The notes beneath the pieces are model-generated. The model saw only the letters and a list, made by a program, of their open reading frames with translations. It did not search any database and was not told the DNA's origin. A DNA stretch of 27,159 nucleotides from Catajapyx aquilonaris (lineage: Eukaryota), in assembly GCA_000934665.2 (NCBI GenBank), contig KZ538271.1:62001-89159 (forward strand), read 5' to 3'. Positions 1 through 27,010 of this stretch are shown one piece after another. Made by a program: the position numbers and the translations under genes. Each line of letters starts with the position of its first letter. Position 1 is the stretch's first letter.

Positions 1-389
1 ATAAAAAACCTACGTGGGATCGGACTGCTGCTTCAGTGTTAATCCAAAAAACCCTTTGATCCAAAAATGTGTTTCTTCTTTGTCGTACTGGTTGCTTTCC
101 GTGTCTGTACCATTCCAGGTGGGAGCCGTATTAACCCCAAGTGACGTGAACTTCCACTACATCTACTTCTGTCTGCAGTGTTTCTGTGGGCCATGTCTTT
201 TTATATCAAAACATATGCCTTCTTCTTCTAGGCCTGCTCTTTGTTTTTGTTTCATCCTCCGTCTCCCTGTCCTGTCCCCCCACCATACCTCAAACGGCGA
301 TTGGGGATTTTTTTAAACCCGTGTTATTATTGTAGAGAAGCCCCCGGTTACGACAAAAATGGCAAGTGTTGTTCGTCTTTACCCCGTAG

Positions 390-512
390 GTGTCGCTGGT
401 CAACTTTGCCGCGGGCTTGGTAGGACTGTCGGGGATTCAAGCTTTCAAAACCATGAGGACACTGCGTGCCTTGAGGCCTCTCCGGGCCATGTCCCGCATG
501 CAGGGCATGAGG
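390..512 (+). CDS. para: Nav1/para exon, domain III S3-S4 (L-type member of the mutually exclusive K/L exon pair)
   Basis: AG at 388-389 and GT at 513-514; 123 nt, phase 0. Encodes [41 protein letters not shown], with the IIIS4 Arg repeat, closely matching insect para exon L. Confidence 0.95.
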
Positions 513-717
513 GTACGTTTTTTGGAGGAGCAAAACCTCCCTTAGTCCTCCAACTTTGCGAACAGTCAATTAGGGAAGGTGTAATGTAGTATGCTTCACA
601 AACACAACCCCCCAAGTCCTTCCGCAGCTCCTCAACAAAATAATGCTCGCATATTTTTTTATTTAGTACTTTAAAAAAAATTAATATACAAAAAACTGTT
701 CACAGTCACTAAAAAGT

Positions 718-1420
718 TGCATGCTCCCTTTTTCCATAATTATATATTGTTTTTTACTCGAATGCCTGCACATCGCGTGTCTTCAGTAGAGTACCTTCTT
801 CACTATATTTTTAACAAAATAATAATCTCCAAAAAAATGCATGCTCCCGGCAAGTTTCTATAGTTAGCTAGTCATACCAACGATAGTGCTTTTATTAGAT
901 AAACCCCACTATAGGACATAGGACCATAGTTGAATGTGTTGATCATCCCACTTTTTCTTCTACTTTGTTTGAACCTTTAACTTTTTTCGGAATGAGACCT
1001 CTCGCCGATTAATCCCTAATTACTGTGCTAATTAGATGGCACAGTACTTTTGCGAAACACGCGCGTAAAACCATAACCTCAAACTCCTGTCCCCCCCCCC
1101 CCCCNNNNNNNNNNNNAAAAAAAAAAAATTATCTGACCTGACCAATTCCCTGTTTAACCTTCTCAGAATGCCTGACAATTTTTTTAAAAAAAATTAGCTC
1201 CCCAATCATTGTGGTGTGCATGCTAACTGTGCATGTCTTTGCTTTTTTTGGGCTGCAAAATAATATTGTGCGCATTTGTTTGGAGTGACGTACTCATATA
1301 TGTTTCATTCACTGTTGCAGTCTTCTAGTCTAATGGTGCCTATTTTGAATAGAAAATAGATTTATTAAAAGATCATCACATTTTAGAGCACTTTTATTCT
1401 CAATGGCCAAAAATTGCATG
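718..1420 (+). promoter_or_regulatory. Cluster of five TGCATG (Rbfox-type) intronic splicing elements downstream of the L-type exon
   Basis: TGCATG at 718-723, 838-843, 1217-1222, 1230-1235 and 1415-1420, within a ~1.2 kb intron. Confidence 0.7.
1105..1116. other. Assembly gap (N run) inside the intron after exon L
   Basis: 12 N between a poly-C run and a poly-A run. Confidence 0.99.
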
Positions 1421-1714
1421 CTTCATTTTTTTGTGAAATATATTTTTTTAAAACGGATGGCGCTCTTAAAATGTGGTTTTTGCAGATACATTATTAGCAG
1501 TACAATAATAATTAGACCAATGACCTTTTATGTGCGTTTGTGTGTACGTATTACATGTGTGTGGAAATGCGTTGTGCACATTTTTGTGTGCCAACTTTGC
1601 CTGCACAGTTTGCTCCCACCATTTATCTTTTTTAAAAAGACATTTTTGACTGCTTGAAAAAAAACCTTCTTCAAAGGAAGAGTAGGGATCAATCCTATGT
1701 GTGTGTCCATATAG

Positions 1715-1837
1715 GTCGTGGTGAACGCCTTGGTTCAGGCCATCCCCAGCATCTTCAACGTGCTGCTGGTGTGCCTCATCTTCTGGCTCATCTTTGCCAT
1801 CATGGGAGTTCAAATGTTTGCAGGGAAATTCCACAAG
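1715..1837 (+). CDS. para: Nav1/para exon, III S4-S5 linker and IIIS5
   Basis: AG at 1713-1714 and GT at 1838-1839; 123 nt. Encodes [41 protein letters not shown]. Confidence 0.96.
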
Positions 1838-1904
1838 GTAAATATTCCATCCAATATGTTTCAAATAATTTCAAAAATCTGACTCTTTTTTATTGCGGAT
1901 TTAG

Positions 1905-2099
1905 TGTGTGGATGAAGAAGGACTCATGAAGGATGCGGAGGAGATTCCAGATCGATTGGCTTGTGTCAGGGAAAATCTGACATGGAAGAACCTTCAGATG
2001 AACTTTGACCATGTGGGCAAGGCCTACTTGTCCCTCTTCCAGATTGCCACTTTTAAAGGCTGGATGGACATCATGTACGCTGCCATTGACTCCAGAGAG
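1905..2099 (+). CDS. para: Nav1/para exon, domain III turret and P-loop (selectivity-filter Lys)
   Basis: AG at 1903-1904 and GT at 2100-2101; 195 nt. Encodes CVDEEG...[33 protein letters not shown]; the K of DEKA is present. Confidence 0.95.
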
Positions 2100-2159
2100 G
2101 TAATGTCTTCTTCCACCACTGTCCATCAGAAGTGTAAACAAACTTATTGCTTCTTGCAG

Positions 2160-2408
2160 AACGATTGTCTGCAACCAATATACGAGACAAACCTCTACAT
2201 GTATCTCTACTTTGTCTTCTTCATCATCTTCGGATCGTTTTTCACACTGAATCTGTTCATTGGAGTCATCATCGACAACTTCAACGAGCAGAAGAAGAAG
2301 GCAGGGGGGTCCTTGGAGATGTTCATGACTGAGGACCAGAAGAAATACTACAATGCCATGAAGAAGATGGGTGGAAAGAAGCCTCTCAAGGCTACTCCCA
2401 GGCCTAAA
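2160..2408 (+). CDS. para: Nav1/para exon, IIIS6 and III-IV linker (MFM inactivation gate)
   Basis: AG at 2158-2159 and GTGAGT at 2409; 249 nt. Encodes ...[71 protein letters not shown]. Confidence 0.95.
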
Positions 2409-2574
2409 GTGAGTCCCATGTAGTATAAATCAGAAAGGTTGTTTGCATGTCCAGGCTGTCCACTTCTGTACTACTGAGAGTACTGGAACTTGGCACATCT
2501 CATTGATGATTCAGGGAAAAGTGCACTTTTTTGAAGTCTACAATAACAGTTGCTCTTTTATCTTCTCCACACAG

Positions 2575-2845
2575 TTCAAGCCACAGGCCATGGTGTTTGA
2601 GCTGGTGACCAACAAGAAGTTTGACATGATCATCATGTTGTTCATCGGAGTCAACATGCTGACCATGACCTTAGACCACTACCAGCAAAACGAAATGTGG
2701 GAGACTAGCCTGTACTATCTGAATATGGGCTTCATCGCCATCTTCTCGTGCGAGTGCTTCCTGAAGGTGTTTGCACTTCGGTACCACTACTTCAAAGAGC
2801 CGTGGAACCTCTTTGACTTTGTTGTTGTCATCCTGTCTATCATTG
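2575..2845 (+). CDS. para: Nav1/para exon, IVS1-IVS3
   Basis: AG at 2573-2574 and GTAAG at 2846; 271 nt, ending in phase 1. Encodes [24 protein letters not shown]...[19 protein letters not shown]. Confidence 0.95.
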
Positions 2846-2923
2846 GTAAGATCTTTTTTTTTGTTTGCAGCGCATGTTTGGGGAGTGAGACATACTTTAA
2901 TTTTTTTAAATATAATTCTGCAG

Positions 2924-4080
2924 GTCTGGCCTTGAGTGATCTGATTGAGAAGTACTTTGTGTCTCCCACTATGCTTCGAGTGGTGAGGGTGGCCAAAGTG
3001 GGTCGTGTGCTCCGTTTGGTGAAGGGTGCCAAGGGAATTCGAACCCTACTGTTTGCGTTGGCCATGTCCCTTCCTGCACTGTTCAACATCTGCCTCCTGC
3101 TCTTCCTGGTCATGTTCATCTTCGCCATTTTCGGCATGTCCTTCTTCATGAACGTGAAAAACAATGGGGGATTGGACGACGTGTACAACTTCCGCACATT
3201 TGGCAAGTCCATGATCCTGCTATTCCAGATGTCCACGTCTGCAGGATGGGCCGAAGTGCTGACTGGTATCATCAACGAGGAGGATTGCGACCAGCCTAAT
3301 CCGGACATGGGCAGTCCGGGTGACTGCGGGTCGGCTGTCATCGGCATCACCTTCCTGCTGTCGTACTTGGTCATCAGCTTCCTGATCGTCATCAACATGT
3401 ACATCGCCGTCATCTTGGAGAACTACTCCCAGGCGACTGAGGATGTCCAGGAAGGTCTGACTGATGATGACTACGATATGTACTACGAGATCTGGCAGCA
3501 GTTCGATCCGGATGGTACCCAGTACATCCGGTACGACCAGATGTCCGATTTCCTAGACGCCCTGGAGCCTCCACTTCAAATACACAAGCCCAACAAATAC
3601 AAGATCATCTCAATGGACGTGCCCATATGCAAAGGCGACATGATGTTCTGCGTGGACATGTTGGATGCGCTCACGAGAGACTTTTTCGCGAGGAAAGGCA
3701 ACCCGATCGAGGAGGTCGGGGAGGTCGGGGAGGTCGCTCCGAAACAGGACGCACCTGGGTACGAACCAGTGTCTTCTACGCTGTGGAGGCAGCGTGAGGA
3801 GTACTGTGCACGGTTGATCCAAAACGCATGGAGGAAGCACAAAAGGGCTCAGCAAGAGCAAGGTGGTGGTGGTGGTGCAACCGGTGGTGGTGGTGGTGGT
3901 GATGCTGAAGGTGGTGAGGATGCTGGTTCTGCAGCATCTGCATCAGGAGTCGACGATGATGGTAAGCATCACCAGACTGCGGTGATGGTTGAAAGCGACG
4001 GATTCACCACAAAGAATGGACACAAGGTGGTCATCCACTCCCGATCTCCCAGCGTCACTTCGAGGTCAACTGACGTTTGA
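2924..4080 (+). CDS. para: Nav1/para terminal coding exon: IVS4-S6, EF-hand-like region, IQ motif, Gly-rich tract and C-terminus
   Basis: AG at 2922-2923. Contains [16 protein letters not shown] (IVS4), FQMSTSAGW (A of DEKA), the IQ motif IQNAWRKHK and the para-type ending [25 protein letters not shown] at 4078-4080. Confidence 0.97.
3861..3900 (+). repeat. Interrupted (GGT)n repeat encoding poly-Gly in the Nav C-terminus
   Basis: Two ggt runs encoding GGGGG-AT-GGGGGG. Confidence 0.9.
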
Positions 4081-7000
4081 CCAGAAGCAGCCCTGTTGGC
4101 CCAGGGAACCCTCGCAACCATGGTGAGCATGGTAAGCGGTTTCGGAGGAGTAGAAGGACTCCCTCCGCCAGGATCGCCGCTACCAAAATCACCGACCAAG
4201 TCACCACAGCGATGATTGATTGATTGATATGATTGACCCGTCCTGACCAGCCATGGGGACATTTGCAAGACAAAAAAAGGCCAAGTAGCTAAAGAATGAG
4301 AAAAGCGAAAAAAACCATTTTAAAAACCACTAAACGCCTAAAACACTACGGCTATATTACCGCTACTTAACTTTTAACCCAAAAAAACTAAATATTAAAA
4401 CTAAATACTAATTATACTCTCAAATCAATCACATACCGCGATAATAAATAAAAAAGGCTCCTTCTTGCACACCTTTTTGGACCGCTTTCTAGCCTCGTGT
4501 GTGTGGCTTTTCATATTCGCTGGCTCGCACGCTTTTGGGGACGATAAAAACAATTATTTAAGAATAATAAATAAATAAATAAATAAACCGGACGTGCGTG
4601 TGCGTGAAGACGAGGGACGTGCGTTGTTTTGCGTACGATGAATTTTGTACAACCGGAAGGTCCGCTCAGTGCACTTGTTTTTTTTGGTCTGAACTGGTCA
4701 AAATATTGTGATGTGCACTTCCTCCCCCAAAAAAGTGAAATTTTTTTGGCGGGGGGGTTCGGTTTTTTTTTTGTGGGAGTCGAAGAAACGTCCGAGTGAG
4801 TGATGAGTGAACTTCAAATTTTTTTTTCTGGTGCAAAATATTTAAAAAGGCCTCTCTGGGTTCCAATAGGGGGTGATCGGGATACTGGTCGCAAAATATT
4901 CATAATTATTAAAAATAAATAAAAAAAATAACGACTGTTGGTAGCACGCACAGCAACTATAATAGAAAGTTGAAAAAATAATAATAACCAAAGGAAGAAA
5001 AAAAGGAGAAAGATGAACTCGTCCTGTCCCAACACCATCACCAAACAACACCTTTCCACCGCTACAAACATAATTAATATATTTAAAAAATTAATAATGG
5101 CAGCAAGCAGCAGAAGCAGCTAAAAACATCAGCTTGTGGTTTATTTTTGTAATTCGTTTTTCTCGCCAATTGTGTGATGCTGCTAGATAATAATTAATAA
5201 ATAATAATAAAAAAATTTGAAGGGTGGTAATAATGATGTGGGGGGGTTAGAGGGGTGGGGGAAATAATTTTTTTGGGGTGCAAACATGTTGGGGATGGGG
5301 GGGAGAATAAATGGCGAAAAGGTGAAGCAGAAGAAACGAAAAAAAATATTTGTCACTGTGGCTCAAATAAGACTTGAAACCATCTTGAGAATTTCAAAAA
5401 AAAAAAAAAAGAAGAAGCACACGTTTTTAGCCGTTCGTTCACGGTGATGCTTTTTAGCACCTCGGGCAAATTACAATAGATTTCAAACCAAAAAAAAAAT
5501 GTTTAAAAAAATTACTATACATAAATAAATAACTAAAATAATAAATAATTGCAGTAGTGTTGTGGCCGTTCGTTATACTTTGGAAGTGTTAGTCCTCCAA
5601 GCGTAGTAATCAAGGTTTTTCCACTTGTTATTTTTCTACACTATTTCATTATCGTGGACGGGGGTCGAAATAAGTCTTTTCGCAAACAAAATATGAGTGA
5701 CTGATGTGCAAAAATATTGAATTGTGTCCTCGGAGACAAGGGGTGATGACCTGCTGGAAAAAATAATATATATTAAGTAGAGGCTGCAACGTACCGCTAA
5801 AAATCAATATTGAGGGTTAACTATCAGAAAATATTAATAAGAAAAATTTTAAGGATAACATGGGTCTGTTGCCTTCTGTTTTTACATAACTCCTGATTAT
5901 TTTGATCCTTATAGCTAGAATTTGGATACAAATAATTCCCTTACATTTTAATTTCTGGTGAGGCAATATAAGTCATGTGTCCTTTTAATTCTTCTAATTT
6001 TTTGGCAAACAAACAAAAATGGTGTAATTTTCTTTACATCATGTTAGTGCATGAATGGATGGGTTATGTTCCACATAATAAGCAAATTACTCATGCAAAA
6101 AATAATAATCCCGATTTTAGTCATGTCTCTTCCGGAAGATTATCGGTTGTTAAATCATGTACATAAAAACATATTTTGAATGAATCTTTTGGTAAAGGTG
6201 TTCATTTTTGCAGATTGGTCCGGATTAGTAACATTAAATGACAATTTCCTAATTATTCAATTCATCTGCTTTTTTTGGCACCCAAGCATTTACCTAATCG
6301 CTGTTTTCCACTGAAATAGTGTCAAGTGGTGCTTTTTAATATTATGAGGACAAATGTTGTGTGATGGATACAGTGGACACAGTGTTGACTCTTTTTATTT
6401 GTTTTGCATACAAAAAAGTGTCTGCCTCAATTTCAATTCAAAATGTCGATTACGCAAAAGTTTGGTGCCACGCAAACAGTTGCGAGAAAATTTCTTGTTG
6501 GGAAAGCTATAATTATTGTATTACGAGTAATTACGAGTATTACGAGTAATAAAAAAGTAATGACGTTCATTTGCATTTTGTTGTTGTTGTTGACATGTCT
6601 CAATTAGCAGCCAGGAATGATATTGCATTAAAAATGTACTGAGACTGACCGATAAACGGGATATGAGGAACATGCTCCTATTTTATCCTTCCATATAAAT
6701 ATCCAGCCAATGAGAACTACCTGTAATGAGAGAGAAATAAGTTACGATAGAAACCTTTTTGCCAACCCATCAAATTAGACATCCTTTTTAGCCCCCCCTC
6801 AAAAAAAAAAACCTCCATCCAAAAATTATGCTTCCCACCCCTTTATCAATTTTCTGACAATTTGGTCTATTCCAGCAGGAAAGAAAAATTGGGAATAGAT
6901 TCTCATAGAAAATTGTACAGTTAAATTTTTGAAAAAAAAAGTAGATTAGCTTGATTATCGCAATTTAAATGGGAACGCACACATTCCATGCTCCCCCCCT

Positions 7001-16336: not shown

Positions 16337-18497
16337 TTATTATTCCCCTGTGCCCGAAAGCTTGCGGGGAAGACCTCCCATACATTTACAAACCACTTAA
16401 ATCACTGTCATTTATAGTACAATATCACAGAATTTCAAGGATGCTACTGCTAAGGAAAGAAAGTATATATTTGATGAACGGCATGAATAGGCATAGATGC
16501 AAAGAGTAAATGTACCTTATCAGGAGGAAGCTTATTTGGAATACCTCCCAATTTATCCCTTCTCAATGCACGGAAAAATGGACACTCATAAATGAGATGG
16601 AAAAGAGACCAGTTGACATTGCTATTGCAGAGCGAGCATGGATTATCCCGATTTTCGGGAGGGAAGCTCAGTTTATAATCTTTAACGTAAAAAGAATAAG
16701 AATTTTAACTAAACCTTGTCGATTTGTGAAGTCCCCGTTCAACAACCACTCTTTCCAATCAAAACCTGACCTCCAGAACATATTCCCTGGTCGCTCTTGC
16801 CCATTTCAGCTCAACCTTCGCATCAATCATCCAGCACAGAGCTATCTTACTCCACCTGTCCACAGGTAATGCTATTGTTTTTACCAGAAAGTTCAGCAGT
16901 ACGTATGTTGCTTAAAAATGTTGAGATGCAACCTTCCTGTCTCCATCCGTACAAAGTATCCAGCCGTATTTCTAGGGAGGGCCAAAAAAAATTTAATGAA
17001 ATAAGTAATGATAATGAATAAGAAATGAGTAATACTATGGGTCCATCAAGCCTTCGTAATGAAAATGGGCTAATTGTCCTGGGAAACACAATTGCGGGTC
17101 TTGGTATATACCACTGCTGCAGATACTCTGGCCAGACTTCTTGTTCCTCAACATTATGTTTATTGTCCTTACCCCCACTTCTATGAGTTTTTACTAAAGA
17201 CCAGAATTTCGCCATGTCCGAGGTGTCTAACAACTGCTGGATTTTAACACTGTAGATTTTTTTTTTCCTTCGCCTGAAGCTCTTTCTTGTACAACTGGGC
17301 TGCATTGTATATTTTTGTCGTAGAACCTCGGTTGGGTCAGCTTTCCATGTCGCCAGGGCTTTGAGCACGAGCCTTTTATCATTCCGTAATTTTGCGTCAT
17401 ACCAATGAGCTCGAGATTTCCCGCGCTCGCAGTGAAGGATAATTGAAATTCTGAATTATTCCCGTTTCACTCAATAGACCATTAACGGACATAATTTGCG
17501 GCCTTGAGGATTAATCGTTATATCTCTCGAATTTTTCATACTTTGCAGTGAAGAGACCTCGATAGGATCGTATATTAAACTTTGTGATTCAGATCCTATT
17601 CGAGCATTGAAATCTCCGGATAGAATTATATCATACCCTTCATCCAACCAAGGAGTAATAGCTTCTTCCAATTGTAACAAACAATCATCATACTTTTTAG
17701 ATGGATTGATCAGATTGGATTGAGAAATCTTCCGACAGCGACAACCTTGCTTCAACCTTGCTGCATTGCCCATCAGTGCCTTCTTGGCCTTAAAAAATGT
17801 GCAGCGCAGTATAATTGGGCGGATATGGCCCTGCCGAAGCCCTCCTAAACGGTGACATCTCTCCACTGATAAAATGGTAGTCTCTGTCGATGATGCCAAA
17901 GTGACGGATGACCTTCAATGCTGTTTGGCCCATGATTCTTGCCCATCTGGCCCCACCCCAAACAGGATCACATTCTTGCGTCGGCCTCTGTCCTCCATTT
18001 CCGCCACCTTGTGCTCCAGCGCTGCCATTTGACTCTTTACCGTCTTCAGATCTTCCTCCATCGATCCCAGCCGGACATGGACCACTGCCACTTGCTCCTG
18101 GATCGCCTCAGTCACCACTTTGGAGATCTCACTCTTCATCATTCTTAGGACCATTCTCTCTTCTACGCTGTAGTAAAACTTCTATCTCCTCGACAGAGGC
18201 CCCCATTTTCCTAGCGAAATGTCGAGCCCTTATCACTAGCTCTGGAGTCGCAGCCGATTCTCAGAGCATTGAGCTGCTCAATCTCTGCCTTCAGCCTCTC
18301 AATTTCTGTCTTGGATTCGGCCAACTTGGCCCTCAGTTCTTCATTCTTGTCCTGAAGCTTGTCCCACTTTGCCTCAACAATCTGGAGCTCTGCTGGTACC
18401 ATGTCTGCTGAGGTGTCGGCGCTACGTCCAGACATATTATCTCTCTGCTCTCTGATCCGACCGAAGGCTGACTGAAGAGTGAATGCAAGCTCCTTCT
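16287..18497 (-). mobile_element. APE-type LINE, internally deleted (ORF1, partial endonuclease, no RT, CCHC C-terminus, (TTA)n tail), with 13-bp TSD
   Basis: ORF1: coiled coil, EDRGRRKNVILFGV and ERCHRLG..RPIILRC motifs. Endonuclease: GDFNARIG...SRDITINPQGRKL. Linker: WYD...FWSLVK. C-terminal CSLC-x8-HLIYEC. TSD GAATATGGGAATA at 16274-16286 and 18498-18510. Confidence 0.85.
18211..18435 (-). CDS. 74-aa coiled-coil ORF upstream of LINE ORF1
   Basis: ATG at 18435 to TAG at 18213-18211. Heptad pattern KWDKLQDKNEELRAKLAESKTEIERLKAEIEQLNAL. The ORF1 ATG follows after a 4-nt gap, at 18206. Confidence 0.5.
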   Translation of the reverse strand: MSGRSADTSADMVPAELQIVEAKWDKLQDKNEELRAKLAESKTEIERLKAEIEQLNALRIGCDSRASDKGSTFR

Positions 18498-18599
18498 GAA
18501 TATGGGAATACGGTGTATGTAGCGCAAAAAGATGGTGATGATTATTTCTCATTGAAACCAGTTGCATCCATATTTGTGAGCGATATACACGGTACAGTA

Positions 18600-18679
18600 T
18601 ACCTTTTGTAGACCCTATTTTAAGCCCAAGTGTAGGACTACTGAGGTAATGAGATTTTCTTAAAAATGATAGTGACATA
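18600..18679 (+). repeat. Dispersed repeat copy 1 (copy 2 at 20828-21017 is interrupted by a ~108-bp insertion)
   Basis: taccttttgtag.ccctattttaagc...gcccaagtgt.ggactactgaggtaatgagatt is shared by both copies. Confidence 0.8.
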
Positions 18680-19862
18680 GAAGCATAATAAACAGTTCCG
18701 ACATCAGCTTCAATTGTCCTGTCTGAGTGAGAGGCAGGGAAGTATGTCAAAAGAGACAGGGATTATGTGATTCCAACATTTCTTTAACAAGATAATGCAT
18801 GCCAAGTACTATAATATGAAATTGACACATCGACAAACGGACCTTCAGTTCCTGAATTTCTGTCTCCAGGATCGTCCTGTGGCCGTTAGCATCATCGAGC
18901 TCCTTTGACAACTCCCCATTCTTTTTGCTGCGAGAGATTGATTTAAAACCAGCTCCTGCTGTAAGAGTGTATAACCGTTACGAACCTCAACTGCTCCATG
19001 AGGCTATCCACTGATGGTTGCACTGTGTAGGTTATCCTGCAGTTCTCCTGCAGCGACTGAATTGGTGACTGCTCTGAAGAGGAGTTGATCATAAGCACGT
19101 TTTTACAATTTAACTCTTACCATCTGATACCTTTGAGCACTTGAATGAAATTAATATACCGTACCTAACTCTTAGACTTCTCGTGCACTTTTTCAGCTAG
19201 TGAGTTTTCTAGCCCTTTTATAAAACACCGGTACAAAATTATGATTCTTTCAGGTTTCACAGGTTTGGCGTATTCTTAAAATTTAAAATTTGGCGTAGGC
19301 CTACTTCAGACCTTGCAAAAGGGCAACATGAGTCTCCTGGATGCGCCTGGATGGTCAGCCTGAAAGGTAATGATACACACATTAGATGTGATGGCCCATG
19401 CTTAGAGATTTGATTTATGCATAGTATGAGATGTAAAACTTCATTTCACCTAGTCCAGGCATGGACAGATAGGTGACATCATCTGACAGACATACATCAT
19501 CATAAGTCAGAACATTATTTTGAGCTTTCTGTCTTGCAAATCCTTTTGCTTATGTCTTATACAGGGTGATTCTCCCAAATGGAAATCCAAACATTTCCCA
19601 ATAACTTTTTAACTATGGTATGGTTTCCGATTGACATGTACTTCACTTGTATCATTGGCAAGCCCGCTGGCAGCTCCCTGAACCATGTCACTTTCTACCC
19701 CAAAAATATTCTTTTTTTTGCAGTTTATACCTAAAAATCAGTTCAGTTTCCGACATTATAAGTAGGCGTGTAAGTAGGGAGCCCTTGTTCCGAATTTTAA
19801 GTTCAACTTGTAGCATGTTTTTCACAGACACTGTTTTGACTTAAGATTCACTACCCAACCAC

Positions 19863-21353: not shown

Positions 21354-21748
21354 TGTGACCTTCGTAGTTAGGTCGCAACTACTGTTGGGGATGGTTCCAA
21401 ACAAGTAGACTAGGGTTCAACTCAGGATTTCCATTTAATGTCACTGCCATTTTACAAACAGGGTGAGCGGTTGATTTGGAGGTAATAGGGGTTGTTCAGA
21501 TGGAGGGGGAAAAGTAGACGGAAAAAGAGGCATGGCCAGTGGCGGCAGGTGAGCACCACCAAAGGCCTCGATTGGATACAAGGAGACGGTTTATATAGGA
21601 AAGTTTGATGCATTGTGGGTATGTACAACTGAAGATAAGATGACATCGCAGCATGTACTTGCTCTTCCGAGTCAAACAGAAAAGGTCAGGTTAGATGGAT
21701 AGGGGATAAGACCTGCACAGTTATCTGTCCAAATTTTGCAAGGTCACA
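21354..21748 (-). repeat. 3' LTR of element A (395 bp)
   Basis: TG...CA ends with 9-bp terminal inverted repeats; minus-strand TATATAAA at 21597-21590 and ATTAAA at 21439-21434. Confidence 0.92.
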
Positions 21749-22042
21749 CACCCCTATGCTCAGATATCGCTAACAGCTACAAGGATAAGGAAGGCATAAA
21801 TATATACATTTAACACCCAATCTTTCCAATCGACCCGACCCGGTATAGTTCTCCGACGGCCGGTTCACTTGGGCTCACATCCCAAACAATATTCAAAGAA
21901 ACTACTGACTCAACTAAAAAAAGCAGTTCACTCTTATCTTGTCAAACCATAAGAAAATGGGGCCAGTAGATTATACGAACACAGTCACATTCACCCGGTC
22001 GTCACTCACTTCCCCTGAAGATAACACTTTGTCCAGGTTCAC

Positions 22043-22692
22043 TTAGGGCCATTCATCTTCTTCCAGAAAGGCCGATGAGTAGGTGCCTTCGGGCAGCGTG
22101 AGGTCAATGACGGGGCTGTTCTCCGATGCTAAAGGCGGCTGCATCTCATCGGCTGCAGGGCTGTAGACAGGGGAAGATGGCCTCGGTGAAACGTCCTCTC
22201 CGGGGCTAGATGGTGGTCCGTCAGCGACTAGAAGCAACGGACTGCAGGGGTTCCACCGGGTTTGGTCGAACATGCAGAATGATGTGGCGAAAGGTCGTAC
22301 CACGCCGGTGGGTCCGTCAGCAACAGGCATCACTCCAGCATCACTCCCGTCAGCAATTGACGGGTGGGGTCGATATGTAGATCCCAGCTACACATGAAAT
22401 CCAGCCCCAGTACAATTGGCAGTGCGTCTTCTTGTAGCACTGCAAAAGGCGTCTGGAAAACGGCACCAGCCAGACGAATGGGCAATTCAGTCCTCCCAAT
22501 GGGGTGAATCGCGTGGTTCTCTGACGACACCAACACGGCGTCACCAAACGGCAGTATAGTTGGTTGGAGCCACTCTGGGATGGCCTGGATGACGCTGTTT
22601 GACACTGTTGATAGGACCGCCCCGGGACTGATTTGTCCTATCCACATCTCGTAGACAGCTATCGGCAGCGTGGCTGCAGTCATCATCAGCAT
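22043..22692 (-). pseudogene. Retropepsin-like pseudo-protease with Pro/acidic tail, frameshifted by an 11-nt duplication
   Basis: ISPGAVLS replaces IDSGAVSS; HPIGRTELPIRL and PIVLGLDFM are retropepsin hallmarks. Removing one copy of the GCATCACTCC repeat (22327-22347, 11-nt period) joins ORFs 22330..22692 and 22043..22333 into one 212-aa ORF. Confidence 0.8.
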
Positions 22693-23884
22693 CGTGGTTG
22701 TATTCAGGGCCGCTGGCCATATTCCGGGTTGTAACGGAAAGTTCTTGGATGATGCCCCAAAAGCAGTTGGAACTCTTTCTAATCAGGAGTCAAACGAGCG
22801 AGTGATTATACAGCACACACACAACACATTTTTATAGGGTGGGTAAATTGGGACCCTATTGCCCGATGGGAAAATATCTCCCTTGTCGAATGGTTCCATC
22901 ATCTGGGGGGTCCAATCACTTTTCCNTTCCACGTCTCGAGGCGCTACCTCAACGCGGACGTTAAACTGCACACTTTGCAAGTCCCACTTCACGGGGCCCG
23001 CTTTACAGTACAGGGGAGGTCCCAAAAAAATCAACTCCGGTAACTAGTCCGAATTTTTTTTCCACTTGGATACCGTACACCAGTACACTCACGTACAAAA
23101 GTTTTCCCCTCTAACACAATTTTTCTTAATGCCTCCATCCCCCCTTTTTTGTTAAGTAGCCTATCTCCAGGTACCAGCACGGCTCGTCGTTACAGCGGGC
23201 TGTTGGTCCAATGGGGTCAGTCGTTCCAGTGGTATTGGTACTCCTTTCCTCCATATTTTCTCCATCGTAGGGTTGATGGTTGTAGCGGGGTTGAGCACAG
23301 CCATCAGTATGGCCCTCGTACAGGACCCTCTCGGTTCCGGTGGGAGACTATTTGTCCTCCCAGTTGTACGGGGTCATCGATGTCCTCTTTCTTCGGTTTA
23401 TGCAAGATTGCACCACCAGGAGACGGACAGGATAGGATAGGTTAGAGCAGTAAAGCTCGACTTAGGTCAAAACACAGCAATAGTGCAGGACCGGGAAAGG
23501 ATTTGCTTGTTCGGCAAAATCCAATTGGGAATAGGATTAAAGGGGGAAGGTTAAAAGGTCTGGGAGGTGCTGGGTATGCACATACTCCACTTGACGAAAG
23601 GAAGGGTATGTGTGAACGGGGTTTAGGACACACATGGTTAGGAAAGTGAGACGATAAGACTCACTATTGCTGCATATCAGGATAATACAGACGTGGGGTT
23701 CTTTCCCGTGTTAGGATTGCACGGCGAACCTCCGATTTCCCCAATGCGAGGCAAACACTGGGTCAAATGACTTAGTGTGACAATAGTACACACAGTCCAT
23801 AAGGCAACCACGTAGTGCGACACGACTACGACACATGTCCAATGCACAACAACGTGGGGCAGAGACATGGAACCTAAGTGTCAT

Positions 23885-23902
23885 ATCCCACTTCTGACAC
23901 CA
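23885..23902 (-). promoter_or_regulatory. Primer-binding site of element A, tRNA-Leu(CAA) type
   Basis: TGGTGTCAGAAGTGGGAT, 2 nt inside the 5' LTR; complementary to the metazoan tRNA-Leu(CAA) 3' end ATCCCACTTCTGACACCA (from recall). Confidence 0.85.
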
Positions 23903-24642
23903 TTTGTGACCTTCGTAGTTAGGTCGCAACTACTGTTGAGGATGGTTCCAAACAAGTAGACTAGGGTTCAACTCAGGATTTCCATTTAATGTCACTGCCA
24001 TTTTACAAACAGGGTGAGCGGTTAATTGGGAGGTAATAGGGGTTGTTCAGATGGAGGGGGAAAAGTAGACGGAAAATAGGCATGACCAGTGGCGGCAGGT
24101 GAGCACCACTGTGACCGAAACGGCCATATAGCGTGAGAGGGCAAAAGGGGTAAAGGCCAAAGATGACACGTGGGTTAAAGCTCAAGTTCTCCAATGTATT
24201 TAACAACAGCCAAGGCGACAAAGTGAGAAGGGTAGAAGGGAAATAAAATGAAAAAAGGGAAAGGAGGGAGTGACCAGTGGCCTCACAGTTGAGTGAGACC
24301 AAAGGCCTCGATGAACAGGGGACAGGAGTTTATATAGATGGGTGAAATGCATTGTGGGTAGGGTCTGGTACAAAATATGACATAGTGATGTACGTGGTAC
24401 ATTCCAAACCAAAAGTAAAACTGTCACATACCCCCGTGCCACGATCGAACCATGGCGGTAGTCCAAGGCAAAACAAAAGTCAAACGGAAACAAAAGTTCT
24501 TGAAGGGAGTGAGGAGGACAAAACCAAAAGAAACAGGCCAGGCAAAGACAAACACTGACAGCCTGTACAAAAAGTAACTCAAAACAAAACTGTCCCTTCA
24601 AGGAAAAACTTGAAGAACTGTCAATTCATCATAACACACCCA

Positions 24643-25206
24643 TTAGGTGTAAGTCGCCGCACACACATTCTCGTCGGTGATGGTATCGTTGATGGTGCAA
24701 GCATCTCCATAGTCTATCCATCGATCGTTGGGGTCGTCAGCAGCTCCATCTTCAGATGATGGTAGGGAGTCAGGGATGCTCCCAAAAACTTCCAAGGGCA
24801 CGTGGAAAGGGACGAGGGCAGGATGAGATCCATGTCCGTTATAAACGGTCCCGGTGAGCATGAGTTGGTTGTAGTCGATGGAGCATCGCATGGACGCTAG
24901 AAAGTCAGCAGCCAGAACCACAGGCAAGACGGAAGTACACACAACCAGGAGGTGTAGTTGGATCTCTGCTTCGCCTACGACCACAGTCAGAGTGGTCCGT
25001 CCCAAAGGGTAGATTGGATGGTCATCCGCCACACGCAAGGTCGTCTGAGGGTCAGGGACGAGAGGTGGTCGATCGTCTACAGGAATAGTGTGCCACACCC
25101 TCAGGTCAATGGCTGATGACACAGCACCACTGTCGATCAAAGCGGGCCATGTAGTTCCACATATGCGAACTGGAGCTGTTGATGCTGTCAGCACGTACGA
25201 CGGCAT
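24643..25206 (-). CDS. Stand-alone retropepsin-type aspartic protease (187 aa) with acidic C-terminal tail
   Basis: ATG at 25206 in a good context (agcATG). Active site ALIDSGAVSSAID; flap LRVADDHPIYPLG; PVVLAADFL motif; stop at 24645-24643. Not fused to Gag or RT. Confidence 0.85.
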   Translation of the reverse strand: MPSYVLTASTAPVRICGTTWPALIDSGAVSSAIDLRVWHTIPVDDRPPLVPDPQTTLRVADDHPIYPLGRTTLTVVVGEAEIQLHLLVVCTSVLPVVLAADFLASMRCSIDYNQLMLTGTVYNGHGSHPALVPFHVPLEVFGSIPDSLPSSEDGAADDPNDRWIDYGDACTINDTITDENVCAATYT

Positions 25207-26026
25207 GCTGGTTGCTGTGGGATAGGCTCGAAGTCTAGAAAAGAGAATGGTGAGGTCAAAAAAGCGTGTCACCAAATGGCGATGTGCGGCTTGGAGTACG
25301 TCCTTTTTGTAGAGGCAACGCAAAGCACGATGGGTAATCACCTCAAAAATTATCACACGCACAACCACAGGGTGGTCAAACCTGTAGAAGTGCACAATAA
25401 TTATATTTGACCAAGAATGGAGTCCCATTCTTCCCATCGACACTACCTTGGAACAGACGGCACCGGGTGGTTCATGACCCCGGTCTCCAACTGACGTCTT
25501 TAGATAGGTTTTAATGATGAGGTTAAAGCGGTCATCTCCATTTACAGGGATGCCTTGACATACCCATTCAATGCATAATTGACGATAAGCTTATGGCCTT
25601 CTACACACGTTGGTATACAACTATACAAGGACGGAATAAAATGTACTTAGGAGGGGCGCAGTATTAGACCAATTCCACTAGTCTGGCCATACTGCCATTA
25701 GTAAACATTCGTTACACGGTAGTATTTCGTCGTCTAATGTTTACTAATCCTCCATCACTCAATATTTAAATAACCCCTCTCGAAGGTCACGGATTGCAGC
25801 GGTTAGTAGTTACGTCTAGGGGCACATCAGATAGTCCGGCCTCGCAGGAACAGATCGTATCCAGACATCCAGAAGAACTGTTCGGATTGGTTCGGGATGG
25901 CACATCCGGTTGGACCGGTAGTATCCACAGGCGTTGTCCGTTTTCACCGGAGCAAGGTTGAGGGAGTATACAAAACGCACACACACACAACCGGTCGTAA
26001 CCGTAGGATTCCTCTTCGTATTTGGT

Positions 26027-26088
26027 TGTTCGTATCCGTATCCGTAACAAGGCTGTTCGTATCCGTATCCGTAACAAGGCTGTTCGTA
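26027..26088. repeat. 27-bp tandem repeat (2.3 copies) in the leader of element B
   Basis: TGTTCGTATCCGTATCCGTAACAAGGC twice, plus a partial copy. Confidence 0.9.
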
Positions 26089-26598
26089 ATAATTTTTTCT
26101 TTTGCTCGCACAAGGTCAGGGAAGATAAAGGGAAAAGGAGAGGGGGGCATGATCTCTCCTCTGTAGGTTAATTTGAAGGATGGGTTCACGTGTGGGGAAT
26201 AACACGGATGCTTAGGGAAAGGATATAGACGTAATGTACCAGGATCGTACATAGTCGTAATAATGGAACACCGGTATGAGAGCTTGAGAAATGCTCGTCC
26301 AGTGAAATGTAAGGGAAAAACGAGTTGTGCAGGGAGTTGCCATATGCTGGTAGGTATGCACACTCTAAGTGGCCGTGAATACTTGTTACATAGCCACAAC
26401 CAGACTCCACTTGACCGAAGTCGCGAGTCCACAAGTGTCAATTCCGTAAATACAAGGAATGACGTCAATACAGGACAGGGGAACAGGGAACGAGTCCACA
26501 AGACTCGCGAAGGGGTACGTGCGCCATGCACCACCCACAATTTGGAAATAAGAAATAGGAGCGAGCGAGTAGGAAAACCGGAGGGAGGGACATTTCAG

Positions 26599-26616
26599 AT
26601 CCCACTTCGGGCGCCA
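26599..26616 (-). promoter_or_regulatory. Primer-binding site of element B, tRNA-Lys-like 5' part
   Basis: TGGCGCCCGAAGTGGGAT, 6 nt inside the 5' LTR. The first 11 nt match the tRNA-Lys(UUU) PBS TGGCGCCCGAA. Confidence 0.75.
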
Positions 26617-27010
26617 CGTTTATGTGACCGAAACGGCCATATAGCGTGAGAGGGCAAAAGAGGTAAAGGCCAAAGATGACACGTGGGTTAAAGCTCAAGT
26701 TCTCCAATGTATTTAGCAACAGCCAAGGTGACAAAGTGAGAAGGGTAGAAGGGAAATAAAAGGAAAAAGGGAAAGGAGGGAGTGACCAGTGGCCTCACAG
26801 TTGAGTGAGACCAAAGGCCTCGATGAACAGGGGACAGGAGTTTATATAGATGGGTGAAATGCATTGTGGGTAGGGTCTGGTACAAAATATGACATAGTGA
26901 TATACGCGGTACATTCCAAACCAAAAGTGAAACTGTCACACCACCAAAGGCCTCGATTGGATACAAGGAGACGGTTTATATCGGAAAGTTTGATGCATTG
27001 TGGGTATGTA

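Follow-up and report, generated by a model that had tools for sequence, protein, structure and literature searches.

A candidate stop-codon readthrough extension at the end of the para sodium channel gene

The window, as we call the whole stretch of 27,159 nucleotides that was analysed, opens (positions 1-4080) with the last exons of a para/Nav1 sodium channel gene, whose earlier exons map upstream on the same contig. Four domains, a D-E-K-A filter and a para-type C-terminal tail place the gene in the para/Nav1 family, the filter motifs being TQDFW, CGEW and TFKGW (mapped upstream and in the window) and SAGW in the last exon.

2924 to 4080, forward strand: last coding exon of para/Nav1, with domain IV S3-S6, an EF-hand-like region and an IQ motif (Pfam Ion_trans, GPHH and IQ_SCN5A_C); the protein matches are named para, the exon start is taken from the sequence and the tail ends in SRSTDV.

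A genome search with the C-terminal region returned the window itself as the one close match and two distant ones (39% and 32% identity). With para as the only close Nav1-type match, channel diversity would have to come from splicing, editing and recoding. Two quick trees, built from taxa without any wingless insect or dipluran and with support (92 and 93) under the starred level, recover the window's protein as the sister lineage of the sampled winged insects taken together, springtails and crustaceans falling outside that clade; such a position would fit an early-branching hexapod.

The domain IV pore loop (window 3238-3261) reads AGWAEVL where the usual form is AGWDGVL, so that the outer-ring acid is lost or moved by one, and a loop of this type is common to three of the four springtail channels examined; the available part of PMC6259924 reports that substitutions at this site reduce tetrodotoxin sensitivity in other animals. 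The domain III pore loop (window 2050-2082) departs from the insect FKGWIQIMND, with residues identical to those of the ostracod Notodromas. The domain III S3-S4 exon exists in two alternative copies (window 390-515 and G000:C487:61844-61969), which resemble the mutually exclusive k/l exons of insect para and occur in this apparently early-branching lineage. A Gly-rich linker encoded by GGT repeats (window 3853-3960), variable among homologues, separates the IQ motif from the conserved tail, and further downstream ORF translation reveals retroelement-like remnants at window 16800-18800 and 21354-27010, the latter being putative protease-only LTR elements.

The end of the last exon and the DNA beyond it contain the following features.

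4069 to 4077, forward strand: terminal T-D-V, a sequence pattern that fits a class I PDZ ligand.
4078 to 4081, forward strand: first stop, TGA followed by C, read from the sequence; candidate readthrough site, its orthologous stop being a published candidate in fly and mosquito.
4081 to 4212, forward strand: second open reading frame of 44 codons, the candidate readthrough tail; the DNA search, within its sensitivity, detected no second copy in the genome.
4189 to 4212, forward strand: tandem S-P-x-K/R motifs SPTK and SPQR, which would be the end of a long isoform.
4213 to 4236, forward strand: second stop TGA with TGAT repeats; the coding score drops steeply beyond it.

The initial annotation had described this region as a candidate readthrough extension of the channel, and its basic observations hold: TGA at 4078-4080 with C at 4081 directly follows ...STDV, 44 sense codons at 4081-4212 encode the peptide it gave and end in TGA at 4213-4215 amid TGAT repeats, and a segment with a GC content of 0.60 gives way to A/T-rich DNA from about 4260. 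The C after the stop provides the leaky context of a Jungreis-type readthrough candidate. Several AATAAA hexamers follow at window 4443-5545, the first at 4443 and a cluster at 4566-4582. All sampled words of 3400-4700 occur in five sequencing runs (one organism, two studies), none of those listed being RNA, a result that was not taken as evidence on expression.

Dinucleotide shuffling (5000 shuffles for each length) produced an open run of at least 44 codons in 28% of cases for 4081-4212, 17% for 4081-4260, 9% for 4081-4380 and 6% for 4081-4580. Beyond the stop, frame +2 is also open for 46 codons, and frame +1 for 14. Because 6-28% of shuffles equal it and frame +2 is open as well, the open frame is real but weak evidence. 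The same sequence could be an untranslated, GC-rich, T-poor proximal 3' UTR carrying a long hairpin (for stability, localisation, as an editing substrate or by chance), with background leakage at the stop and nothing more, which is the main alternative and which we hold to be possible if doubtful; it agrees with the presence of only 18 T in the 132 nt of 4081-4212 and with two open sense frames of three, as seen in 11.8% of shuffles.

The tail itself shows three-base periodicity (p = 0.002). Under a second-order model trained on para its frame 0 scores +15.3 bits, the best of six frames, and the next 132 nt score -33.6. Of 2889 stop-free non-coding windows, which overlap one another, 99.4% score below the tail, and among true coding windows the tail ranks in the bottom fifth. 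Composition-matched stop-free shuffles equal the coding score in 2.4% or 10.7% of cases, depending on the model, and A occupies 45% of third positions in the tail versus 12% in the last exon. Across 12 coding models the best sense frame is frame 0 in four and frame +2 in seven, a lack of frame specificity that would be expected of an untranslated segment.

The three best imperfect near-tandem repeats in the tail, from a search blind to reading frame, recur at lags of 9, 12 and 15 nt. Each of their three mismatches is silent when read in frame 0 and changes the amino acid in frame +2. Both observations are post hoc, the repeat scores lie within the ordinary range (p 0.08 and 0.24), and the ranking also includes a perfect 5-nt repeat at lag 13. 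Two close tripeptide repeats, also noted post hoc, arise in 7 of 3000 stop-free shuffles. Lags in multiples of three with differences that are synonymous in frame 0 remain unexplained if the segment is untranslated. A rough baseline of nine unverified gene ends in 730 kb, a small sample, cuts both ways: none has a positive frame-0 score or a GC content of at least 0.59 in the next 132 nt, which speaks against an untranslated segment, and one combines TGA-C with a 55-codon open frame of negative coding score, which speaks for it.

Predicted RNA folding after the stop involves four elements.

4091 to 4106, forward strand: small 5-bp hairpin CCCTG/CAGGG with a 10-nt spacer, right for a stimulator; weak and context-dependent.
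4117 to 4133, forward strand: ACCATG/CATGGT stem, outcompeted by the long hairpin.
4119 to 4137, forward strand: 9-nt tandem copy (MVS-MVS) with two donor-like sites, pattern G-GT-R-AG at 4122 and 4131.
4122 to 4193, forward strand: long predicted RNA hairpin of about 23 bp with bulges, entirely within the second open reading frame.

The two hairpins put forward initially as aids to readthrough are present as sequences where they had been placed, but are minor folds, and the dominant hairpin at 4122-4193 had been overlooked. The ACCATG/CATGGT stem reaches z -3.05 when folded alone and drops to a pairing probability of 0.0 in all four longer contexts. The CCCTG/CAGGG hairpin (z 0.10 alone) has a probability of 0.98-1.0 in two contexts and 0.05-0.09 in the other two. 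The long hairpin, by comparison, is predicted at -33.5 kcal/mol (z -4.25; none of 1000 shuffles is as low), has the lowest z among the 80-nt windows scanned across 2940-5600, and shows probabilities of 0.94-1.0 for its outer, middle and inner helices; z -3.9 or beyond is reached by 6 of 500 GC-matched genome windows. As the strongest local fold it would suit a structured UTR, and since its arms are G-rich and C-rich, it could alone explain the Gly/Val and Pro content of the tail and its few stops.

Spacers of published readthrough stimulators are 7-12 nt (PMC3159437, as far as the available part goes). A distance of 41 nt separates the long hairpin from the stop, and a stem of the kind described by Firth et al. 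in 2011 (about 9-14 bp, starting 7-12 nt past the stop) is absent here, the fold at that distance being the 5-bp stem at 10 nt. In the portion of the published fly data available, conserved RNAz structures lie less than 100 nt from the stop in 9-10% of candidates versus under 1% of other transcripts, and the predicted long hairpin of the window falls inside this distance too, a point in favour of readthrough. The 8-mer CAGCAGCA is absent.

The two donor-like GTs, at 4123 and 4132, share phase 0 of the tail frame and a place in the 5' arm of the long hairpin. It is conceivable that an intron begins at one of these putative donors in some transcripts, so that the 3' UTR would contain an intron or, with readthrough, 14 or 17 tail codons would be spliced to a downstream exon, with the hairpin hiding the donors and setting the ratio. 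Both sites fit the donor pattern of the para introns of this gene, and 14 and 17 codons are near the 12-18 codons of most insect tails; against this, the two sites are one 9-nt duplication, and unused matches to the pattern number six across 5481 nt of exon cores, a genome sample giving 0.38 per kb; we consider such splicing quite improbable.

Still less credible, to the point of being very improbable, is another form of recoding at this stop, whether A-to-I editing of the UGA, selenocysteine insertion or a frameshift into frame +2. Para is heavily edited in flies, the UGA lies within a short predicted stem, and frame +2 offers its 46 open codons. That stem around 4078-4080 is unremarkable, however (z -0.25), no Rfam family, SECIS families included, matches within 3900-7000 at E up to 5, and the tail repeats speak against frame +2 by their mismatches.

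The terminal T-D-V conforms to S/T-x-hydrophobic, the class I PDZ-ligand pattern. Among 238 fetched proteins, a set dominated by fly isoforms (the best 120 of 146 and the best 120 of 1021 matches, the first search limited to 2000 residues), TDV ends 37 and ADV 181; the available part of PMC6259924 likewise describes the arthropod Nav1 C-terminus as a PDZ-type motif xxA/TDV. An extension beyond the terminal motif is absent in 197/238 fetched proteins carrying the motif, an absence that is uninformative because ordinary annotation ends at the first stop, only the best matches were taken and the 2000-residue limit applied. Two proteins, P0247 and P0248, continue past DV with W and have tails unlike the window's; judging from the protein, this W is probably a TGA translated as Trp by the gene caller.

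No Pfam family matches the tail. A search of 1.84 billion representatives with an 83-residue read-through query gave 14 matches, all to the normal C-terminus and none past residue 41, and no relative turned up in the prokaryote and viral contigs scanned. A tail peptide without homology is compatible with an untranslated segment. At least two S-P-x-K/R motifs appear in 0.5% of 5063 stop-free shuffles (a post hoc count); we take SPTK and SPQR to be of the CDK-type consensus. It had been proposed that readthrough would mask the T-D-V ligand and add SP phosphosites. Masking follows by definition if readthrough happens; PDZ binding and phosphorylation are predicted from motifs.

The most direct link to known readthrough comes from the stop itself. 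The window's terminal residues align with fly para, so that its TGA is orthologous to two entries in Data S1 of Jungreis 2016 (PMC5100048): para-RA of D. melanogaster (14 codons, TGA-G, flagged Preliminary, that is, from the first-pass list) and AGAP004707-RA of A. gambiae (18 codons, TGA-G). In that data file both rows are stop-orthologous 'Ancient' PhyloCSF candidates with TGA throughout the aligned species. An untranslated UTR leaves unexplained why the published candidates have TGA at this orthologous stop, unless readthrough is restricted to the insects where it was reported, or lost outside them, as that reading supposes. A literature search, with subscription journals and bioRxiv supplements outside it, found no study testing para readthrough or PDZ masking by experiment and no published readthrough screen of the window's lineage.

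A metagenome scan yielded at least 21 further loci, of which 11 have a readable DV end and form six groups.

L004-5: ant-like, TGA-T, 66 low-complexity codons.
L006-10: insect, TGA-G, 13 codons.
L011: insect-like, TGA-G, 12 codons.
L019: insect-like, TGA-G, 16 codons.
L024: springtail-like, DV end, TAG-G, 24 codons.
L021: unplaced, DV end, TAG-T, 7 codons.

Left outside the stop count are loci with other termini (L013 with TGA-C and 37 open codons, L015 and L017 with TGA-T, L020 with TAA, L014 with TAG) and those with no readable true end (L012, L016, L018, L022, L023). One of the former, the copepod-like Nav1 locus L013 (1212-1326), carries its TGA-C and 37 open codons after a different terminus, STSIV. 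TGA is thus the stop in all four distant insect-like groups with the canonical end (L004-5, L006-10, L011 and L019), and TAG in L024 and L021. A following C is found in none of the four insect-like groups and in neither published case, which weakens the argument for leakiness drawn earlier from the C at position +4.

L006 and L019 both carry RPPLP in their tails, encoded with two synonymous differences; the protein score of this pair exceeds all 1000 shuffles and the likeness is significant at the DNA level too. Counted by codon position, the two tails differ at 5 first, 5 second and 6 third positions, showing no excess at the third. The tails of L011 and L004 are not alike that of L006 (p 0.19 and 0.35), and the window's tail shows no likeness to five other para tails in any frame (protein p 0.36-0.90, DNA p 0.43-0.96). 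A one-base-shifted likeness between the start of the window's tail and L006 was tried and is not significant. According to the part of PMC5100048 available, orthologous readthrough regions are frequently unequal in length and without visible likeness. No significant fold follows the stop in L004, L006, L011 or L019 (z +2.9 to -0.9). At L006 (2098-2170) and L019 (2740-2835) the bases directly 3' of the TGA can pair with a segment past the second stop, with whole-region z not significant.

Taken together, we consider it rather probable that a minority of ribosomes read through the UGA-C at the para stop, adding a 44-residue tail that hides T-D-V and brings two S-P-x-K/R motifs. The proposal of a readthrough extension is plausible and gains support from the orthologous stop, which published PhyloCSF work lists as a candidate in both D. 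melanogaster and A. gambiae, while several of the arguments first given for it fared poorly: the open frame is near chance, one of the hairpins is absent in context and the peptide has no detectable relative. Most of the weight for readthrough lies in the orthology of this stop to those of the published fly candidates and not in the features listed in the initial annotation. Readthrough is not new for para, and the window probably adds one more case at a stop already on a published list.

The stop may be envisaged as an ancestral leaky para stop, at which most ribosomes would end at UGA and produce a channel terminating in T-D-V. In a minority of events a near-cognate tRNA would outcompete eRF1, with help from the C after the stop and perhaps from RNA structure further 3'. 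Near-cognate tRNAs at UGA are those for Trp, Cys or Arg. The product would gain one residue and then the 44-residue Gly/Pro/Ser-rich tail, burying T-D-V and finishing in the two S-P-x-K/R motifs. What would be kept across hexapods is the leaky UGA at the para end and not the tail sequence, and for that reason the likeliest role would be a C-terminal docking switch, acting in anchoring or trafficking, and not a conserved new domain. Should the stop be read through in the window's lineage, the cases listed for fly and mosquito would extend to before the winged insects, and such an age, if true, would be an argument for function. It is tempting to go further and suppose that leaky para termination predates winged insects and is kept for capping and uncapping the PDZ-type end, that the tail turns over freely, and that the hairpin hides the two in-phase putative donors, so that readthrough and splicing could together give three C-termini; we regard this fuller scenario as unlikely.

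Compared with para-RA and AGAP004707-RA, the window has the same gene, the same TGA and a stop after the conserved ...SR(S/T)(T/A)DV. It differs in context and length, with TGA-C and 44 codons here versus TGA-G and 14 and 18 codons there; the fly rows carry no RNAz structure entry, whereas a long hairpin is predicted in the window, and the evidence is multi-species PhyloCSF in the published cases and a single genome in ours. The Drosophila headcase and kelch genes and the alphavirus UGA-C, as covered in the available part of Firth et al. 2011 (PMC3159437), share with the window UGA, a following C and predicted 3' structure. Their stems start at 7-12 nt, span 9-14 bp and have comparative support, whereas the window has 5 bp at that spacing and its strong hairpin begins at 41 nt. 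Abundant readthrough characterises Pancrustacea (PMC5100048), and in the bumblebee TGA-C marks 20.2% of candidates versus 3.5% of non-candidates (PMC7826183), both as given in the accessible parts of these papers. The window resembles the cases described there in being the end of a long, many-exon neural gene with TGA-C, an intermediate coding score and a fast-changing tail, and differs in coming from a lineage that branches outside the winged insects sampled in the trees.
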